From IMG/VR virus record IMGVR_UViG_3300045988_165521: a stretch of DNA of 64,000 bases, one strand, 5' to 3'. Shown in pieces: positions 6,620 through 36,698 of this stretch (the stretch's first letter is position 1; the number at the start of each line of letters is the position of its first letter). Both the position numbers and the translations under genes were made by a program. Source of the stretch: a virus. The notes under the pieces are model-generated. The model ran no database searches. It saw only the letters and a list, made by a program, of their open reading frames with translations, and was not told the DNA's origin.

Positions 6620-7093
6620 ATGAAAATTTCTGAAGTAAAAAATCTGCCGAAGATTGCAGCTCCTGGTGGGCGTGTAGTAGCAGAAGTGTCTCCCGAATTC
6701 CTGAAGGAAAAGGGTATAGGTATAGTAACCTACGGTATCGCACCGAATGAAGTTGTCGAATTTCCTGACACGGAAGCTGATATTCAGCTTTTCACTCGTA
6801 CTGTTCGTCCGAACAGTGATGCAGTTGAAACACTGCTCGTAGTGAAACGAAACGGTCAGGACGGCTATTTCTCGGTCGCAGCACTTCGTCGCATGGACTA
6901 TCAGGGCAACTTCGTCGGTCCTGTATGTAAGGATCTGCAGAAGGCAGAGAATGACTACGATCGTGTAGTCAAGACGTGTGGCAAGAAGCTGACGTGCAAG
7001 GAGATGACGAAGATCAAGGTTCGTAAGTTCAACAACGGTGTCGCAACCGATGAACTGACCGAGCGCGAAGTACCCGTTCTCGAGTATGCGTAA
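6620..7093 (+). CDS. hypothetical protein (157 aa), GC-richer
   Basis: ORF-track ORF with an ATG start and a long hairpin downstream. Confidence 0.7.
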   Translation: MKISEVKNLPKIAAPGGRVVAEVSPEFLKEKGIGIVTYGIAPNEVVEFPDTEADIQLFTRTVRPNSDAVETLLVVKRNGQDGYFSVAALRRMDYQGNFVGPVCKDLQKAENDYDRVVKTCGKKLTCKEMTKIKVRKFNNGVATDELTEREVPVLEYA

Positions 7094-7103
7094 CGGTCAA
7101 ATT

Positions 7104-7141
7104 ACAGTTAAGGGGTCGTGAGTACGGCCTCTTAACTGTTT
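7104..7141 (+). terminator. terminator-like long hairpin
   Basis: ACAGTTAAGGGG...CCTCTTAACTGT. The trailing T-run is weak. Confidence 0.5.
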
Positions 7142-7263
7142 AGAAACTAATATGGGTAGAATATATGTAGCTAATGCAGATAGCTGATATAGTAATCCAG
7201 AAAGTTTCTGAGTCCTTGAAAAAGGACGGTATGACATGTGGTACATTGTACGATGTGTCCATT

Positions 7264-7293
7264 GTCTATAAGTCTTTGATCGGACTTATAGGC
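7264..7293 (+). repeat. conserved-loop hairpin, copy A
   Basis: Stem CTATAAGTC/GACTTATAG around loop TTTGATCG. Confidence 0.8.
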
Positions 7294-7331
7294 CCTAGTG
7301 ATGATTTGATGAGTTTAGATGATTAGTGACC

Positions 7332-7368
7332 GTGGGAAGAGAAGTGATGAGCTCTTCCCACATTTTTA
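7332..7368 (+). terminator. rho-independent terminator
   Basis: Hairpin GTGGGAAGAG-aagtgatga-CTCTTCCCAC followed by ATTTTT. Confidence 0.75.
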
Positions 7369-7377
7369 TTAAAGATT

Positions 7378-7524: not shown

Positions 7525-8180
7525 CTGCGATTGCATAGTAATAATAGTTCTTTGACATATTGACATGACAAAATGACAGAAACACCTGACAAAATGTCAT
7601 GTTGTGACTGAAGTAGAGGGTGAAGTGATCGGTGTAAGTCGTTGATTATCACACTGTTATTCATCCTCTACTCTTTTTAAAACTGTCAATTTGTCAGACC
7701 AACTTCCTTCATGTAAAATATCTATTATTCTCACATTCAGAAAGTTACTCCTCAATAATAATAATTTCAATTACTATTTTGAAGTTTAAACAATCGCTTT
7801 TGGTAATATTAGTTATTTTATAATTTGACAATTCAAAGTTTCAAACTTTAAACATACATAAACTCGAAATCCTGCTGATGATTACCAGAAACTAATGTCT
7901 GGATTTACTATGATTAGTTTACCTAATGTAAGTAGGGTTTAAACGAGTATAAATAAGACCCGAAATTGGCTTTTCACACTCGTCGAATAGTGTAAGGGAG
8001 CGAAGTACAGTAGGTCGACAAGTAATGTATATATTCCTTAACTGACTGTCACAAAGGAAGTGAGTACATTATGAGTTATATTATTGCTCAAGACGGTAGT
8101 AATAATTATTTAATGAATTGTGGAAGCGATATCTTTTCCAAATCACAATGGAACTTGGAGTTTCAAACATTAATCTATAT
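7525..8180 (+). ncRNA. ORF-free block A, candidate structured RNA or regulatory region
   Basis: No ORF of at least 60 aa in any frame. It contains a long hairpin (AGTAGAGGGTGAA...TTCATCCTCTACT plus T-run) and ends at a tRNA-like gene. Confidence 0.3.
7553..7696 (+). promoter_or_regulatory. cluster of TGACA/TGTCA pentamers, operator-like
   Basis: TGACA occurs at 7553, 7561, 7566, 7574 and 7587. The palindrome TGACAaaaTGTCA is at 7587-7599, and TGTCA recurs at 7684 and 7692. Confidence 0.45.
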
Positions 8181-8267
8181 CGCGGAGTGTATTGCGCATG
8201 GTAACTGGATAACCAGCCTGGGCCACGCATAACCCAGGAGATTCAGGTTCGAATCCTGACTCCGCAA
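8181..8267 (+). tRNA. tRNA-like gene with initiator-type hallmarks, an expanded D region and a 10-nt anticodon loop
   Basis: Acceptor CGCGGAG/CTCCGCA has a C1xA72 mismatch. The T arm is TCAGG-TTCGAAT-CCTGA. Stem CTGGG/CCCAG (three G-C pairs) encloses CCACGCATAA, which contains CAT. It is about 12 nt longer than a class I tRNA. Confidence 0.5.
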
Positions 8268-9230: not shown

Positions 9231-10368
9231 GAGAACCTTTGGGGCTATCTTGCCGTGACTGAACCATTAACAACGAGCAACCCTGGCACAACTCGTAAAC
9301 GCCAGGAACAGTCTATCTACACATAAGGTCTAAGGACTAATTTGTGAATATAAATCCTCCTCCCCAAGTTGAATTTTATTCCGAATTGGATAGTTAATAG
9401 AGATGTCTGCGTGAGCAGGATTGGTAGTACCCTCTATTGTTAAAACTGTTTCTTTTTGACATTTTTTATCTAAATATATAAATCTAGATTATGAAATTCG
9501 CAGTAGGCTAGCTTTAATGCTTAAAAGTTCTTAGTTTAATTTTATTTCCTCTGATTTAATTCGAGTGAACAAATTGCAGAAGTAACTCACCTGCACTAAC
9601 AAGCTAGAATATGAAAGCAAGAGACGGTCCGAATATGTAGGATTTATTTTTTATTCATAATAATTTATTTGGAGAAATTAAACATAAAAATGCCTAAGAA
9701 ATTAGGTGTGTTGAATAGGAAGGCACTTGTCCTATTGCACGCAAGTTAATTACGGTTATTTCTAATATATGCTAGCAACATTGATGTAATCCAATTAATA
9801 TTGCCTATATAAGAGATGCGGAAGACTGTTAAGTGTCGAACTACCAAGCGGTTTAACAGGGATAGAGACTCTATGGTAACATAGAGAATTTGCTGGATAG
9901 CGTGGATTCACATACGTAAATGTGGAGCAAAGGAAAATGGCAGAATTACCAAACTTCTTTTCAATAGGGACGAAATTTATCTATAGACAATAACCAGTTA
10001 GCTCGTAATGTCTGCCTTTCAGATTAGCTAGTCTAGAAAGTTGAGTGAGTTATATAGACAAGAAAAGAAGAAAACCCTCGAGTTAGAGGTCATATAAGAA
10101 TTATTATCTTACCTAGCTAGTAAGATTGATCTGTAATGTTGACTGTAGTACGACAGATGATCGTAATCTTATATGTTGATTAACCGTAACAGTAGTAATT
10201 GTAATTCTTTATTATTAAAGTTTTTACATGCTGGAGAGAAGGCAGAACTCTCTTTGGAATCTGTCGTTTAGGTATAGCTTCTTTGATCGGAAGCTATACC
10301 ACTAAAATGTCTGTAATTGCACTTTTTCATTTTAAAGAGAGTTTCCGATCTCTATAAAAATCGGATTC
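9231..10368 (+). ncRNA. ORF-free block B (about 1.1 kb), candidate large structured RNA
   Basis: All six frames are closed by TAA, TAG and TGA. G+C is intermediate. It contains hairpin copy B near its 3' end and is followed directly by tRNA-Glu. Confidence 0.35.
10271..10300 (+). repeat. conserved-loop hairpin, copy B
   Basis: Stem GGTATAGCTTC/GAAGCTATACC around loop TTTGATCG. Confidence 0.85.
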
Positions 10369-13417: not shown

Positions 13418-13487
13418 ATGTGAATAGCTCAGTTGGTAGAGCGGCAGGTTGTGCTGAGGGTCGCAGGTTCGAGTCCTGTTTCACATC
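13418..13487 (+). tRNA. tRNA-like gene with a truncated anticodon arm (14 nt instead of 17)
   Basis: The acceptor (ATGTGAA/TTCACAT), D arm (GCTC-AGTTGGTA-GAGC) and T arm (GCAGG-TTCGAGT-CCTGT) are all regular. Only GCAGGTTGTGCTGA lies between position 26 and the variable loop. Confidence 0.45.
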
Positions 13488-13507
13488 CAAAATTAAAAAT
13501 TAAAATT

Positions 13508-13723
13508 ATGTTTTGGTTTATATATAAAATAACTCTCGTAGTTATTGTAATGATAATAATTGCAGTATACTTTAAAGATCGAGAACTTTTCAAGTCGCAA
13601 ATTTTTAACTTATTTACGACAGGAGAATTTATTATCTTATTGACTCCCATTATCAATACACTTCTTATTATTTATGGTGTATATAGAGCCATTCAAATTA
13701 CAACTAAAAATGGTAGGAAGTAA
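13508..13723 (+). CDS. membrane protein (71 aa)
   Basis: Track ORF 13433..13723 begins inside the tRNA-like gene. The first ATG after it is at 13508 (MFWFIYKITLVVIVMIIIAVYF...). Confidence 0.5.
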   Translation: MFWFIYKITLVVIVMIIIAVYFKDRELFKSQIFNLFTTGEFIILLTPIINTLLIIYGVYRAIQITTKNGRK

Positions 13724-13877
13724 ATATTGTGTAGAATATTATTTTTATAACGAGGATAATTTACCAGTTCAAAGTTTTGCTTTTGTTATTGCAACTTCTG
13801 ATGAGGAAGCAATACAAAAAGCACAAAATTATTCTACAAGTAAAATAACAATTATATCTTGTACTAAATACGCTTAG
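13710..13877 (+). CDS. hypothetical protein (55 aa)
   Basis: Track ORF 13674..13877. An ATG at 13710 gives a short overlap with the upstream gene. Confidence 0.45.
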   Translation: MVGSKYCVEYYFYNEDNLPVQSFAFVIATSDEEAIQKAQNYSTSKITIISCTKYA

Positions 13878-13966
13878 GCATGGAAGATATTGAGACGAAT
13901 GATATTGGGCAATCTTTAGTAGATGAATTTGTCGATGATAATGCTATTGAAGCTCAAGAAAAATAG

Positions 13967-15453
13967 CCTACGGACTTAAGAGGGTTAACACAAACCTAAA
14001 CTATTATGGATAAACCCATAATTCAATTATAATAAGCCTATAATGAATTTGAGGGGAGTTAAGGCAATTCTGAACAATTAAAACCAGCCGTATCCTAACT
14101 TCAACATGGTCTGTCAGTTTAGTGTTGAAGGAATAAGTTCTGTAATTATTTAGGGTGAACCATTTGAAGAAGTTGTAATTCTTCTACGATGACTTGTGTC
14201 GTATAATAAAAGAACAAGATCTATGTACAGTTGCATGGATTACTCCGTGAGATTCGGAGAGTTAAACTGCAGGTCAATAGAAGTGGTTAATCTATTGATG
14301 AGTCCTTTGTCTACTAAGGGAGTCCACTCGTTATAAGTTTAGAGGGAAGGAGTAGAATAACTTGAGTCGAGGCCATGAGTATTTAGTTAGCATGAGTTAT
14401 ATTATCCCAGATTAACAAATGTGTAAATACAAAAGGTACAGCAAGGATATCTCTAATTGAATAACTTTACTTCTAAATTCTGTAGTTTAGGTTTAGAGAT
14501 CTTTTAATAGGGAAAGCCAGCTTATTATAACGAAATTAATACCACTGCAAGGGCATGCGTTACAGAGTGGTATTTTTAATAGAATGTGTTAAATATTATA
14601 TAACTGATAACAATGGGAGTAGATGCTTAGTTCTACAAAAATCTCTATCTGATAAGCTTATGATCCTGCCAGTGATTAAGTAAAACAGAGATGCCTTGGC
14701 AGAGGCTGCAACGGCTAGCAGATCATAAGAGATCCTAGTATCGGGCGGAGGGAAGTTGCATACGTAAGTACCTCTAATTTTTTAAATCCTTCTGATCAAG
14801 CCTATGAGTAGATGAAGGTGCATAGTGACAGTAGGCTGCTTGATCTATGTTTAAGGTGGTTGACTAAGAGACGAATGCAGTAAAAGACTGGCCCGAGAAG
14901 GTCAGTAGAGTAGGGGCGGAGCCTACCGTAGTCACAATGAAAAACGAAAAGATTAAGTTGTCGCAAGGAAACTTACACTTAGTAGTTTATAAGAGCAAAC
15001 AGACGTCAAGCAATGTACAGATTAAATGATGTTTGGGAAAATAGAAACTATTAGTAGCTGTAACTACGAATGTTTGATGTAGCAGTCAATTGCATATGAG
15101 AGGTCATATGATTGATAGCCAAATGAATATCTGCTCTTATTGATAAACATGCCTGTACAAGTAATATCGAAGGTTGCACACGGATGATACGAAGGTTAAA
15201 GAGCTGGTGCAATAAGCTCATAATTAGAATTTATCTAGCTGGAATGTTTATCACTTTTTACCTATAACACTTTGATCGGTGTTATAGGTCCTAGAAAATA
15301 ATAGAGATAGGTGGCAAAGTCTGAAGATTCGAAAGAATATATGGCAACAGTACCTAGCTGTAGGGTTGTAACCATTGTGAGGTCACATTTTAGATGATCC
15401 AAACGTACAGTCTATCTCTTTTATTTTTTTAAGAAAATAATTATGGTAAAAAT
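13967..15453 (+). ncRNA. ORF-free block C (about 1.5 kb), candidate large structured RNA(s)
   Basis: It is the largest ORF-free stretch, with stops of all three kinds in all frames. It has many local and long-range complementarities (for example AGAGATAG at about 15304 with CTATCTCT at about 15411, then a T-run). It contains hairpin copy C. Confidence 0.35.
15260..15289 (+). repeat. conserved-loop hairpin, copy C
   Basis: Stem ACCTATAACAC/GTGTTATAGGT around loop TTTGATCG. Confidence 0.85.
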
Positions 15454-15696
15454 ATGAAAAAGTTACTCATTGTACTCGCATTATGTGTATTTGCAGTATC
15501 TTGTTGTGAAGTAGACCACAACAATTCTCAGAAAAAAGAACCAGAAAAGATTACTGCAACTTCCTTTAAAGTTTATACACAAAGAGGAAGTCTTGTTTGT
15601 GAATACTATGAATTCATATATCATGGGCATAAGTATATTACAAACTATGGAGAAAAATTTTTACTTCATTCTCCTGAGTGTTCTTGTCAGTATTAG
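15454..15696 (+). CDS. putative lipoprotein (80 aa), paralog of 39418..39636
   Basis: Signal peptide with lipobox-like VFAVSC. The C-terminal region (GH.Y...H.P.C.C) is shared with 39418..39636. Confidence 0.6.
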   Translation: MKKLLIVLALCVFAVSCCEVDHNNSQKKEPEKITATSFKVYTQRGSLVCEYYEFIYHGHKYITNYGEKFLLHSPECSCQY

Positions 15697-15699
15697 TTT

Positions 15700-15999
15700 A
15701 TGGAAAATAAAAGTTTACGAGCTCTTGCAATATTTATTATAATAGGTTTTGTCTTTATAGTAAATTTTGCTTTTTTTGGAGTTCAAGGTAGAATTACTGA
15801 AGACTGGACAGATAAGTTTACAAAAGAGATTAACTATCTTGAATATAAGGTAGATTCTTTAGAAAAGGTAGTTAATAGTAATCTTACACATCGTCGTGAT
15901 ACATTAATCATTGATGTACGCCCTCAAACAATCAAAATTTATCAACCTAATGGAAATAGTATTAATAATAATTCTAGTATTGCTAGTACTCCAAGATGA
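15700..15999 (+). CDS. membrane-anchored hypothetical protein (99 aa)
   Basis: ORF-track ORF ending in TGA. Under TGA=Trp it would run to the TAG at 16021-16023. Confidence 0.55.
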   Translation: MENKSLRALAIFIIIGFVFIVNFAFFGVQGRITEDWTDKFTKEINYLEYKVDSLEKVVNSNLTHRRDTLIIDVRPQTIKIYQPNGNSINNNSSIASTPR

Positions 16000-16009
16000 C
16001 GATTAAACT

Positions 16010-16270: not shown

Positions 16271-17449
16271 ATGAATTTAAAAAAGATTATTGCTGTCTTC
16301 GTGGCAGTGTTCGCAGTTTTCTGCGTTGTGTTTCTCGGTAAGATTGGAGAGGATGTGAAGAACGAAACTATTGTGGTCAACCAGTACCCCCTTACGGGTA
16401 ACATGGAGTATTGGACGACGCCTGGCTTCCACTGGCAGTGGTGGGGTAAGACGACGGTCTATTACAAGACTCAGCAGCTCTGGTTCGGATCTGACAACGA
16501 TGCTGGTCAACAGATGGGAAGTCCTATTCCCGTGATCTTTAATGATGCGTCGGATGGTATGGTGTATGGTTCACTTCGAGTTAAACTCCCTACTGATCCT
16601 AAGTATCTAGCACGTATTCAGACGGATTATAACGGTATGGATAGGCTTATTAATGACCTCGTTCGGCCTACTGTTACCAAGGTTATTTATGCGTCTGGTC
16701 CTCTGATGTCTGCATTTGAATCTTATGCTGAAAAGAAGAACGACCTTATTGAGTATATCACTGACCAGCTCAATAATGGTGTATACAAAACTTCTGTAAA
16801 GCGAGTTGAGATTCTGGATGCAATTTCAGGAGATAAAAAGCTGGTTAATATTGCAACTCTTATCCCTGATTCTCTCTCTGCTGGTGGATACAAACGTAGT
16901 GAATCTTCGCCGTTTGCCTACTATGGTTTAGAGATCGGTCAGGTAGCAGTTTCTAAAATTGACTATTCTGAAACAGTTAAGAAGCAGATTGCTCAGCAAC
17001 AGAAAGCAAACATGGATATCCAGACTGCAAAGGCGCAAGCCGCTGCTGCTCAACAGGATGCAATTAAGGCAGAGGAGCTTGGTAAAGCTGCTGCTATGAC
17101 TGCAAAGTGGGAGCAGGAAAAAGTAAAAGCAGTCGAGGTAACTAAGGCTCAACAGGCTTATGAAGTAGCATCACTTGCTGCTAAAGAAGCTATGGAAAAT
17201 GCAAAGAAAGTGAAGGCTGAAGGTGATGCAGAAGCATTCCGTCAGGCAGCATTAGTACGTGCAGGTCTTAGTCCTAAGGAAAAGGCAGAGATTGAGATGC
17301 AAACGAAGATTGGTGTAGCTGAAGCTTTATCGAAGCTGGAACTTCCTAAAATTGTTATGGCTGGTGGAAACACTAGTAATGGCAATGCTGCCATGGATGC
17401 GATGGGACTTAAGATGGTATCGGATCTTGTAGATAAGATGTCGAATTAA
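16271..17449 (+). CDS. SPFH/Band 7 (prohibitin/HflK-like) domain protein
   Basis: An N-terminal TM is followed by an SPFH-like core and an Ala/Gln/Lys-rich coiled coil (QQQKANMDIQTAKAQAAAAQQDAIKAEELGKAAA). Codon usage is GC-richer. Confidence 0.8.
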   Translation: MNLKKIIAVFVAVFAVFCVVFLGKIGEDVKNETIVVNQYPLTGNMEYWTTPGFHWQWWGKTTVYYKTQQLWFGSDNDAGQQMGSPIPVIFNDASDGMVYGSLRVKLPTDPKYLARIQTDYNGMDRLINDLVRPTVTKVIYASGPLMSAFESYAEKKNDLIEYITDQLNNGVYKTSVKRVEILDAISGDKKLVNIATLIPDSLSAGGYKRSESSPFAYYGLEIGQVAVSKIDYSETVKKQIAQQQKANMDIQTAKAQAAAAQQDAIKAEELGKAAAMTAKWEQEKVKAVEVTKAQQAYEVASLAAKEAMENAKKVKAEGDAEAFRQAALVRAGLSPKEKAEIEMQTKIGVAEALSKLELPKIVMAGGNTSNGNAAMDAMGLKMVSDLVDKMSN

Positions 17450-17990: not shown

Positions 17991-18540
17991 GCAGAAAATC
18001 CTACCTGCTTCACCAAAGGTGTAGTCCCTGTAATAGAACGTTACAGTTTTCTCTATTAAATATATGGAAAAACCATATATAAGAGAAGGAACCCATACTA
18101 AAACTATGAAGTTCTAAAAGGACGATAAACATTGCCTACATCTCTTTGATCGGAGGTGTAGGCTCTATTTTTTACCTATTTTCAAACGAATTCGTTAGGA
18201 GAAAGCAGAGCCTCTAATGCTTACGCAATAAGTATTATGCAGAAAACGCGACTAAAACTTGATTCCACAAGTGTTGAATTTTGTTGATTAAACGATACCA
18301 GATAGAGTGGCTCATACCCACAAACCTGAATTAAACTACATGATCGTAAAGTGTAGATTCTCCTGTAGGCATACAGGCTGTTATTGTTTACCCATTGGAA
18401 GGCGTGGGAATAGGTAGAGTTAAGGAGGAAGGTTAGTCTACTGGTGTATAGTAGTATAGAGAACATGGCCCAGTACTAGGCTGAATAATAGCCCATGTTA
18501 GCACACCTTAACTTTTTAATTATTAAATTTCTATTAAGTT
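17991..18540 (+). ncRNA. ORF-free block D, candidate structured RNA
   Basis: There is no sense ORF (the 18221..18466 minus ORF looks spurious). It contains hairpin copy D followed by a T-run. Confidence 0.3.
18134..18163 (+). repeat. conserved-loop hairpin, copy D
   Basis: Stem GCCTACATCTC/GAGGTGTAGGC (one G-U pair) around loop TTTGATCG, then TCTATTTTTT. Confidence 0.85.
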
Positions 18541-21964: not shown

Positions 21965-22342
21965 GGGGCTGCTAGGTATTTGATCCTAATGTCAAGTAAT
22001 ATCAATCGTGTCGAGTTTGATTCATACTCGTAAAACAGATTCAAACAATAAACGCAAATAACATTTTTTCGCGCATTATCAACAAGGTTGAGACGGCGCT
22101 GTTTGGCGACATTGAAGGAGTAGCTTTAATAGCTGCGTAAATCAATGGGAGGTTCGTCACTCTTAAACTGGCGAGAACAACACTTCCTTTCAAGGTTTGG
22201 CTTCGTTCCTTAAAAATGAGCTGGTGGATGGGTCACCTTCGGGTACCCCTATTGGGTAGTTCCAATTAAAACAAAACTAACACACGTAATAAGTTGATAT
22301 TAGGAGAATTAGGAGACACGCGTTCGATTCGCGTCAGCTCCA
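21965..22342 (+). ncRNA. ssrA: tmRNA (transfer-messenger RNA)
   Basis: 5' GGGGCTG pairs with 3' CAGCTCC, including G3-U70, and is followed by A73. The T arm is ACGCG-TTCGATT-CGCGT. The ends resemble E. coli GGGGCUGAUUCUGGAUUCGAC and ...CCAGCUCCACCA. An internal frame ...GDIEGVALIAA-TAA (stop at 22138-22140) looks like a tag. Length is 378 nt. Confidence 0.85.
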
Positions 22343-22350
22343 CTATTTAA

Positions 22351-36626: not shown

Positions 36627-36698
36627 GCGTCGTTGGTGTTAGTGATAGCATATTAGACTTCCAATCTAAAGGGGAGAGTTTGAATCTCTTACGACGCT
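36627..36698 (+). tRNA. tRNA-Gly(TCC)
   Basis: Acceptor GCGTCGT/ACGACGC. Anticodon arm is TTAGA-CTTCCAA-TCTAA, T arm is GAGAG-TTTGAAT-CTCTT. Confidence 0.9.

Follow-up and report, generated by a model that had tools for sequence, protein, structure and literature searches.

The 64,000-nt stretch of virus DNA analysed here (IMG/VR virus record IMGVR_UViG_3300045988_165521; the whole of it is called the window below) contains a block, 13878-15453 (1576 nt), that is the longest gap in the window without an open reading frame (ORF) of at least 60 amino acids (aa). Comparison with counterparts in other phages suggests that this block is probably a cluster of separate plus-strand structured noncoding RNA genes, rather than one RNA or a coding region. 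At least five modules (A0/A, B1, B2, B3 and B4) make it up, each of which is conserved in related gut phages. Judged from the sequence comparisons, the modules are conserved, strand-specific, structure-constrained, noncoding and independently mobile, and several have terminator-like ends. An initial annotation of the window had proposed one large structured RNA at 13967-15453, perhaps of the GOLLD or ROOL class or of a new one. Structure and conservation were borne out, and one module (element A) reaches ~450 nt. A single 1.5-kb molecule was not, since relatives split the block, and membership of GOLLD or ROOL had to be given up, as the block is modular and has no such match in Rfam 15.

The modules and their parts are as follows:

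13967-14128, plus strand: A0, a loosely conserved 5' region with small hairpins and the motifs GATAAACCC and GAG(G/T)GGGA(G/A)TTAA
14129-14578, plus strand: element A, ~450 nt, with 19 predicted helices and 111 pairs in the RNAalifold consensus
14538-14579, plus strand: intrinsic-terminator-like hairpin (14538-14574) and T-run at the 3' end of element A, with the invariant internal sequence CUGCAAGGGCAUGCGUUACAGAG
14649-14784, plus strand: B1, ~135 nt, with four hairpins and a predicted terminator and the motif CUGAUAA at its start; 21 distinct versions were listed
14657-14680, plus strand: B1 hairpin H1, with loop CUGCCA
14693-14706, plus strand: B1 hairpin H2, short, with loop UUGGCAGA
14714-14739, plus strand: B1 hairpin H3, variable, its stem occurring in five different sequences
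14747-14751 with 14771-14775, plus strand: B1 hairpin H4 (GGAGG with CCUCU), followed by six Ts at 14778-14783
14785-15055, plus strand: B2, which holds a tRNA-like cloverleaf
14785-14861, plus strand: 5' part of B2, a long, variable hairpin that separates B1 from the tRNA-like element
14862-14934, plus strand: 73-nt tRNA-like element, a cloverleaf with acceptor, D-like and T arms that lacks an anticodon loop
14935-15055, plus strand: 3' domain of B2, with hairpins at 14955-14974 and 15000-15035 and an enclosing stem (14980-14988 with 15045-15053)
15055-15294, plus strand: B3, ~240 nt, with a hairpin at 15085-15116 and a long closing stem, ending in the hairpin 15260-15289
15260-15289, plus strand: conserved-loop hairpin, with a 12-bp stem and the loop region cUUUGAUCgg
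15295-15431, plus strand: B4, with a closing stem (AGAGAUAG, 15303-15310, with CUAUCUCU, 15412-15419), three small hairpins inside and a T-run at 15420-15430

Independent conservation of the modules

Related loci were fetched through the SPFH/band-7 protein encoded at 16271-17449 (29 loci), and further ones through DNA patterns, and were compared by blastn. The whole block is kept at 99-100% identity in seven loci. In eight close relatives (L002 type; flanks 96-99% identical), 14666-15453 is kept and 13994-14665 is replaced by ~240 nt, a 'mini-A' in which an A0-like part and the first hairpin of A are followed directly by a hairpin and T-run. Distant lineages keep 14124-14577 at 82% (L014 type, with a 74% identical SPFH protein) and 70% (L022 type) nucleotide identity, together with the start of the B part. 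Between A and B, these have three small ORFs (L014, 8264-9034) or one ORF of ~200 aa (L022). A and B1 are 356 nt apart in the window type, 515 nt apart in L021 and 918-1113 nt apart in loci of the L014 and L022 types. L058 and L052 have B1 by itself, flanked by two protein ORFs, and in L051 B3 ends with its terminal hairpin and a T-run and is followed by a gene, B4 being absent. Since each module can be present, missing or set apart by genes in relatives regardless of the others, the block is a row of independent units that are contiguous here. In a metagenome contig (L067, from ~12126 onward) the middle of B4 is joined straight to the 3' part of the SPFH gene, by a natural deletion or a misassembly.

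When IMG/VR, JGI/ENA metagenomes and GTDB genomes were scanned with exact and degenerate patterns, nothing but these phage lineages came up, the sole GTDB match being a phage contig binned in a 'Clostridium' metagenome-assembled genome (MAG). One contig of the L002 type, L094, is binned in an 'uncultured Clostridium sp.' MAG. No similar sequence was found by blastn (at ~65-70% sensitivity) in deposited phage genomes. A covariance model of the core of element A (R1), run against 29 sources that included the distant L025 and L027 and phages lacking A, detected A only in the same three lineages, and so did a metagenome scan, in which all occurrences were from human gut. The modules are restricted to a few human-gut lineages of zeta crAss-like phages.

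The claim that no ORF of at least 60 aa runs through the region and that all three stop codons close it was confirmed. ORFs listed inside the block do not exceed 56 aa, and TAA, TAG and TGA each occur many times in every frame of 13967-15453. Read with the standard code, the longest stop-free frame there has 61 codons; the length rises to 67 if TGA is taken as sense, to 87 if TAG is, and to 119 if TAA alone remains a stop, and in shuffled sequence the longest frame is 83 ± 19 codons. Substitutions in element A between lineages show no 3-periodicity (p = 0.27-0.80) and its indels are of 1-2 nt, while the adjacent SPFH gene has a strong third-position excess (p = 1e-29). With no ORF under TGA or TAG reassignment, no codon periodicity in element A and indels that break the frame, the block is best regarded as noncoding; the unusual coding that the initial annotation had allowed for was not found. 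As that annotation had also said, the G+C content of the block (0.36) is above that of its flanks (0.27-0.29) and of the window (0.316), and within the block G (0.217) exceeds C (0.143).

Element A is backed by covariation. In an alignment of 20 distinct sequences from three lineages (A3), standard pairs were found in 96.7% of cells over the 111 pairs. Seventeen pairs were changed on both sides, compared with one to three when the 3' partners were slid by one to three columns, and no shuffle reached the observed covariation score. The conservation and covariation whose absence from relatives would, in the initial annotation, have spoken against a structured RNA are thus present. Nucleotide identity in element A is 82%, above that of the SPFH gene (71% for DNA, 74% for protein). 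Many invariant G-U pairs in element A, which would be A-C on the opposite strand, and the T-runs indicate the plus strand. Hairpins followed by T-runs were recognized by eye at 14538-14579, 14747-14783 and 15412-15430 and are conserved in relatives; a simple terminator consensus scanner omitted all three, as their stems or loops exceed its limits.

Structures of the modules

Element A is predicted to fold around a 7-bp long-range helix (14266-14272 with 14480-14486) that closes a multi-way junction, and its invariant internal loops include CUCGUUAUAAGUUUAGAGGGAA and UUGAAUAACUUUACUU. Three stem pairs of its 3' hairpin covary (ACCAC/GUGGU, ACUCC/GGAGU, ACUAC/GUAGU), and TTTTT follows the hairpin in all lineages. 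Resemblances to RNase P RNA and group I introns, seen by eye, were not upheld, and a P4-like pairing candidate lacked covariation in L014.

The motifs of A0 and a compensating hairpin (14089-14125, with a different hairpin in L014) were recognized by reading the sequences. A0 is probably a leader or 5' domain of the A transcript; together with element A it measures ~610 nt. An RNA of ~600 nt closed by pairing between A0 and the 3' tail of A was considered and rejected, as the inverted repeats exist but their duplex energies equal those of shuffles in four lineages. Directly upstream of A0/A lies a small acidic ORF (28-35 aa, ...LVDEF(V/L)DDNAIEA...), at 13880-13966 in the window, 7503-7607 in L014 and 7460-7552 in L022. 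It is kept in all lineages, even those without the body of A, and could be functionally linked to the RNA region.

B1 keeps its loops while its stems change. The stem of H1 occurs as four unrelated sequences (CTTA..ATC, ATGAAT, GATGG, ACACGATAGAT) that always present the loop CUGCCA. The stem of H2 switches from GCC/GGC to GUC/GAC, the linker AAACAGRGA is common to the versions of B1, and a conserved GACGGAGG/GGCGGAGG leads into H4. CUGAUAA, the motif with which B1 opens, shows no enrichment in the window. The loops of H1 and H2 are complementary over 6-8 nt, and may engage in a kissing contact or form an alternative long helix; because both loops are invariant, covariation is silent on this pairing. 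The H1 loop also resembles the anticodon loop of tRNA-Gly(GCC), a likeness that is a lead only because the loop size varies (6-8 nt). Extra database matches to looser B1 patterns lay inside coding sequence and were dismissed as chance. For B1 and the tRNA-like element, MAFFT went out of structural register across lineages, and pairs were counted by hand and with a script.

The 5' hairpin of B2 varies in sequence and length among close relatives (the window, L007, L012); counterparts exist in L014 and L020 but not in L022. The tRNA-like element that follows has an acceptor stem of GACUAAG with CGUAGUC, mismatched at 6:67, an 'anticodon' arm (CUGGCC-CGAGAA-GGUCAG) and a T arm (GUAGG-GGCGGAG-CCUAC). 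The 'anticodon' arm is a plain hairpin whose loop measures 6 nt in the window and 4, 5 or 9 nt in its relatives, which means that the element cannot decode. In relatives the T loop comes close to the canonical form (UGCGAAU, UUUGAAU), and a 3-bp D stem is present in the elements of L014 and L022. Six sequence types were aligned by hand: of the 18 pairs of the acceptor, 'anticodon' and T stems, 12 were changed on both sides, and 95% of cells were paired, figures that are biased towards the structure because the alignment was built around it. As a functional tRNA the element was not recognized: there was no ARAGORN call in the window or relatives, and no Rfam tRNA match at E < 5.

In the 3' domain of B2, the loop of the hairpin 14955-14974 is G(Y)CGCAAGGA, with AUAGGU in relatives. 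The architecture of this domain recurs in L014 and L022 with other stems (UGUGCA/UGUACA against UGUGUA/UGCACA; UAUAUACC/GGUAUAUA against CUAUACAU/AUGUAUAG), and there B2 ends in a T-run right before the next gene. L051 backs the Hd stem of the domain; the enclosing stem is not clearly backed. A second anticodon-less tRNA-like element was found only in the window, L002 and L005:

8182-8267: acceptor stem GCGGAGT/ACTCCGC, an extra arm, and an 'anticodon' arm CTGG-ATAA-CCAG whose loop has 4 nt

It has a canonical T arm (TCAGG-TTCGAAT-CCTGA) and was called by neither ARAGORN nor Rfam.

In B3, nine of 58 predicted pairs were changed on both sides in an alignment of seven distinct sequences (A9). 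With a slightly different model and our own count on alignment A4, the figure was 15 of 69, with 98% of cells paired. The loop of the hairpin GAGCU...AGCUC, GGUGCAAU, can pair with an upstream GUUGCAC. Two mutually exclusive helices of B3 both covary, which indicates a pseudoknot; the pairing of this loop with GUUGCAC is accordingly modelled as a probable one.

The hairpin that ends B3 belongs to a small family. The initial annotation had pointed out a conserved-loop hairpin, and it is real: the loop motif TTTGATCGG occurs four times in the window, always on the plus strand, against 0.33 expected. The other three copies lie in similar 12-bp folds:

~7263-7292, plus strand: conserved-loop hairpin
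10270-10299, plus strand: conserved-loop hairpin
18133-18162, plus strand: conserved-loop hairpin

All four have differing 12-bp stems that compensate and lie in ORF-free, tRNA-rich stretches, and the family may be a protein-binding or processing signal. Apart from this hairpin, the modules have no paralogues elsewhere in the window. One copy stands in another ORF-free fold, 7085-7375, which is very stable (-112 kcal/mol over 291 nt), has no Rfam match and ends in a strong hairpin and T-run at ~7326-7372.

B4 probably ends a B2-B4 transcript. Its closing stem is the long-range pairing already quoted in the initial annotation, and is present as described: AGAGATAG at 15303-15310 pairs with CTATCTCT at 15412-15419, followed by TTTATTTTTTT at 15420-15430. 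B4 is almost invariant in nine sequences, so that covariation is silent either way. It is absent from L051 and from the L014 and L022 lineages, and in L094 it is partly deleted (8 nt, the 5' arm of the closing stem).

Known RNAs and alternative explanations

Rfam 15 was searched with cmscan over the whole window at gathering thresholds and, at E ≤ 10 with lax filters, over 13700-15700, 14100-14600 and 14620-15440. Neither the block nor its parts matched any family at E ≤ 10, save at E ~7-9 to unrelated small families. Those unmatched include all the families that had been proposed for checking (GOLLD, ROOL, HEARO, RNase P RNA and group I and II introns) as well as OLE, raiA, 6S RNA, SRP RNA and tmRNA, whose model does find the phage tmRNA at 21965. 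No split gene flanks the block. The same search mode detected Intron_gpI in L013, which makes the negative result meaningful for introns in such sequence. That match covers ~930 nt inside the SPFH gene of L013 (10999-11927; 44.9 bits, E = 8e-10, slightly under the gathering score); the interruption is also found in L023 and L026, and the gene is uninterrupted in the window.

GOLLD and ROOL loci are often found among tRNA genes. Like these RNAs (RF01998, RF03087), which are large, multi-helix, noncoding and often beside tRNA genes in phages and prophages, the block lies in a tRNA-rich phage region, and element A, with its 19 helices in ~450 nt, is comparable to ROOL in size and complexity. Unlike them, it has no sequence or structure match to either family, consists of separable modules instead of one RNA, and is confined to a few zeta crAss-like gut lineages.

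A close analogue of the tRNA-like element in its inability to decode is YrlA, a Y RNA of the kind that has a Ro60/Rsr (TROVE) gene as its neighbour. The noncoding YrlA of Mycobacterium smegmatis has a tRNA-like non-decoding domain whose acceptor stem is 7 bp long; RNase P cleaves this RNA, and CCA is added to it (Chen et al. 2014, PMC4201824). Its arms are permuted (T arm, acceptor-like hairpin, D arm) and it carries a 5' GNCGAAN0-1G motif (PMC4201824), whereas in the B2 element the arms follow the normal tRNA order. A single copy of the motif is present in the window lineage (GACGAAUG, 14871-14878), against an estimated ~0.7 chance matches per 1.5 kb, and is absent from L014 and L022. No TROVE domain was found in Pfam scans of 40 window ORFs. 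With no TROVE partner in the window or the fetched loci and with a different arm order, B2 was not filed as a Y RNA.

The crAss001 genome offers a suggestive parallel. It has a TROVE/Ro60 gene and an unannotated gap of ~900 nt a few genes upstream of the SPFH gene that is orthologous to that of the window. This gap (MH675552.1, 95964-96870; locus L093, 3645-4551) separates gp95 from gp96, the TROVE/Ro60 gene. Within it are five copies of a GTGTAT..AGAnTTACTTCAA motif, a tRNA-like RNA that scores 46.6 bits against the Rfam tRNA model and whose anticodon arm has an insert of 82 nt, and another element similar to this RNA. These elements are likely to be Y-RNA-like genes, upstream of SPFH as the block is in the window, and by analogy of position the synteny with the TROVE region of crAss001 is suggestive.

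Other precedents come from tRNA processing. Species 1 and 2 of phage T4 (rnaC, rnaD) are small stable RNAs in a tRNA cluster, co-transcribed with it and released by tRNA-processing nucleases. A tRNA-shaped element can serve as a cleavage signal (tRNA 'punctuation'), and the classical RNase P determinant is a cloverleaf that has a T arm and an acceptor stem of 7 bp. The RNAs of the block have no homology to the T4 species, are larger and more numerous, and their processing is only inferred. With tmRNA, mascRNA and viral tRNA-like structures, the element in B2 shares an acceptor/T-arm module without a decoding anticodon loop. Unlike tmRNA, it lacks an mRNA-like domain and the G3:U70 identity pair, and it matched neither the tmRNA nor the tRNA family in Rfam.

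Several points weigh against reading the block as a cluster of structured RNA genes. The dense self-complementarity noted in the initial annotation is above chance, but by folding energy only weakly so: plus-strand z-scores are -1.3 for 14129-14578 (element A) and -1.7 for 14644-15432 (the B part). The minus strand of the B part has the better z-score (-3.7 against its own shuffles), though absolute folding energy is lower on the plus strand. With thermodynamics so little above chance, a single sequence is no proof of structure, and the comparative data, whose covariation is convincing, carry the case. Sigma-70-like promoter sites occur in the block at chance level only, and the Bacteroides-type TAnnTTTG (-7) motif was not found in it. 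The alignments of B1 and of the tRNA-like element were hand-made around the proposed structures. In the window lineage the T loop of the latter is degenerate (GGCGGAG) and a D stem is not evident, and the element encodes no CCA. A tblastn search with crAss001 TROVE gp96 detected no TROVE partner in the window or fetched loci, with nothing below E = 2. Finally, the comparison covers three main lineages only, plus two for B1 and one extra for B3, and with so few lineages the compensatory changes represent few independent events.

The modules might instead be cis-regulatory leaders, riboswitch- or attenuator-like and terminator-ended, that control read-through into downstream genes. This would suit B1, in which an aptamer-like part of three hairpins precedes a terminator with the conserved GACGGAGG as its 5' strand, and which lies directly upstream of a membrane-protein ORF in L058 and L052; in L014 and L022 an ORF starts ~10-25 nt after the terminator of A. 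However, the genes downstream vary by lineage, in the window A precedes B1 and B1 precedes more RNA, no alternative antiterminator pairing was found, and element A (450 nt, 19 helices) is far bigger than known leaders, all of which makes leaders an unlikely explanation.

Decay is suggested by the degenerate T loop of the window lineage, by the coming and going of modules among close relatives and by the numerous group I introns of these phages (PMC7886860), from which the block might be taken as a collection of remnants (tRNA pseudogenes, dead introns or scars of mobile elements) with no present function. Compensatory changes, however, hold the stems paired across lineages, conservation exceeds that of the adjacent protein gene, and no similarity to an intron model was found by the search that detected a real one, so that we regard remnants as improbable.

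A single ornate RNA of the GOLLD/ROOL kind over the whole 1.5 kb would account for a block that is contiguous and ORF-free here and that, like many GOLLD and ROOL loci, has tRNA genes around it; transcription past the internal terminators is conceivable, and inverted repeats join A0 to the tail of A. It is nevertheless very improbable, given that relatives split the block (by ORFs between A and B, by B without the body of A, by B1 alone and by B3 without B4), that hairpins with T-runs end modules internally, that no GOLLD or ROOL match exists in Rfam and that the long-range repeats are equal to those of shuffles.

That the block acts as DNA, as a replication origin, packaging site or hot spot of recombination, or that it encodes several tiny or recoded proteins can almost be dismissed: the block is intergenic, AT-rich and has hairpins, and TGA or TAG is recoded in some genes of zeta crAss-like phages (PMC12386605), but cumulative GC skew climbs monotonically through the region with no sign of an origin, strand-specific pairing that depends on G-U indicates RNA, and no frame opens under TGA or TAG reassignment or shows codon periodicity. 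Neither direct repeat families nor tandem repeats were found in 13500-16000, which argues against iterons, CRISPR-repeat mimics (RNA anti-CRISPR) and ToxI-like arrays.

Genomic setting and possible role

In the human gut, crAss-like phages rank with the most abundant viruses; to our knowledge, almost nothing is known of their noncoding RNAs. The G+C content of the window is 31.6% over 64 kb, its ORFs run mostly rightward, and 26 tRNA genes and one tmRNA gene (ARAGORN, Rfam) are scattered between them. Its SPFH/band-7 protein is 47% identical to the counterpart in Bacteroides phage crAss001, and close IMG/VR relatives are contigs of 100-175 kb. Zeta crAss-like phages have genomes of 145-192 kb with ~25 tRNAs, ~30-33% G+C and many introns (PMC12386605, PMC7886860), a description with which the features of the window agree, so that a zeta crAss-like phage fits as its source. 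No description of these RNAs turned up in full-text searches of the literature on crAss-like phages, and two genome papers on the zeta group (PMC7886860, PMC12386605) do not describe such blocks.

Genes near the block encode ClpP, an RNA ligase, a radical-SAM enzyme, AAA ATPases, a cREC cyclic-phosphate-processing receiver domain, and YqeY, NUDIX, HD and methyltransferase proteins; besides tRNA and tmRNA genes, the region is thus rich in genes for RNA repair. The tRNA-like gene that the initial annotation had placed next to the block (13418-13488) is nearby, ~480 nt upstream, and not adjacent. ARAGORN called it as a tRNA with an abnormal anticodon loop ('tg', no isotype), its Rfam tRNA score is 48.8 bits, and it overlaps the start of a 96-aa ORF call. 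The tRNA at 36627-36698 was matched by Rfam and missed by ARAGORN, and neither a tRNA-Gly nor a tRNA-Pro was called in the 64-kb window. The tmRNA (21965-22343) is canonical with an unusually long predicted tag (ANNIFSRIINKVETALFGDIEGVALIAA); the tmRNAs of L020 and L022 also have long tags, which differ from that of the window. The noncoding sequence 7861-8016, without an Rfam match, is 85-91% conserved in distant phages of the L014 type.

If the block is a cluster of RNA genes, these would be transcribed rightward, together with the tRNA and tmRNA genes that are scattered through the early region. The tRNA-like element would be recognized by RNase P, by a 3' end-processing nuclease and possibly by a CCA-adding enzyme. 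It could thereby act as a processing 'punctuation' handle that frees the neighbouring stable RNAs, as a tRNA mimic or decoy, or as both; handle and/or mimic is the simplest interpretation of a cloverleaf with acceptor stem and T arm, given the YrlA precedent (PMC4201824). The freed element A, B1 and B3 may then serve as stable RNA or ribonucleoprotein components in the takeover of host translation or RNA metabolism, or in counter-defence. Modules that come and go between nearly identical phages are probably accessory, not essential. The variable presence of A among phages whose flanks are 99% identical, together with variable insertion of small genes between modules, is typical of accessory regions for host takeover or counter-defence, and this is named here, with low confidence, as the most likely functional area.

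A more far-reaching combination is put forward tentatively and, taken as a whole, is rather doubtful. Element A would be a new class of large ornate phage RNA, catalytic or a ribonucleoprotein scaffold; the elements at 14862-14934 and 8182-8267 would be new phage tRNA mimics, either analogues of Y RNAs or decoys for host factors; the B1 loops CUGCCA/UGGCAG would form a kissing switch or capture an anticodon loop; and all of these together would constitute an RNA-only accessory 'island' in zeta crAss-like phages.

The analysis provides concrete candidate RNA genes with boundaries, strand and structure models: a multi-junction RNA of ~450 nt, a four-hairpin RNA, a pseudoknotted RNA and tRNA-shaped RNAs that cannot decode. 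If expressed, they would lengthen the short list of large structured RNAs without an assigned function and would offer a tractable phage case of tRNA mimicry or of tRNA-punctuated RNA processing. For the annotation of these phages, the lesson is that long 'gene-free' stretches are probably RNA genes and not gaps.

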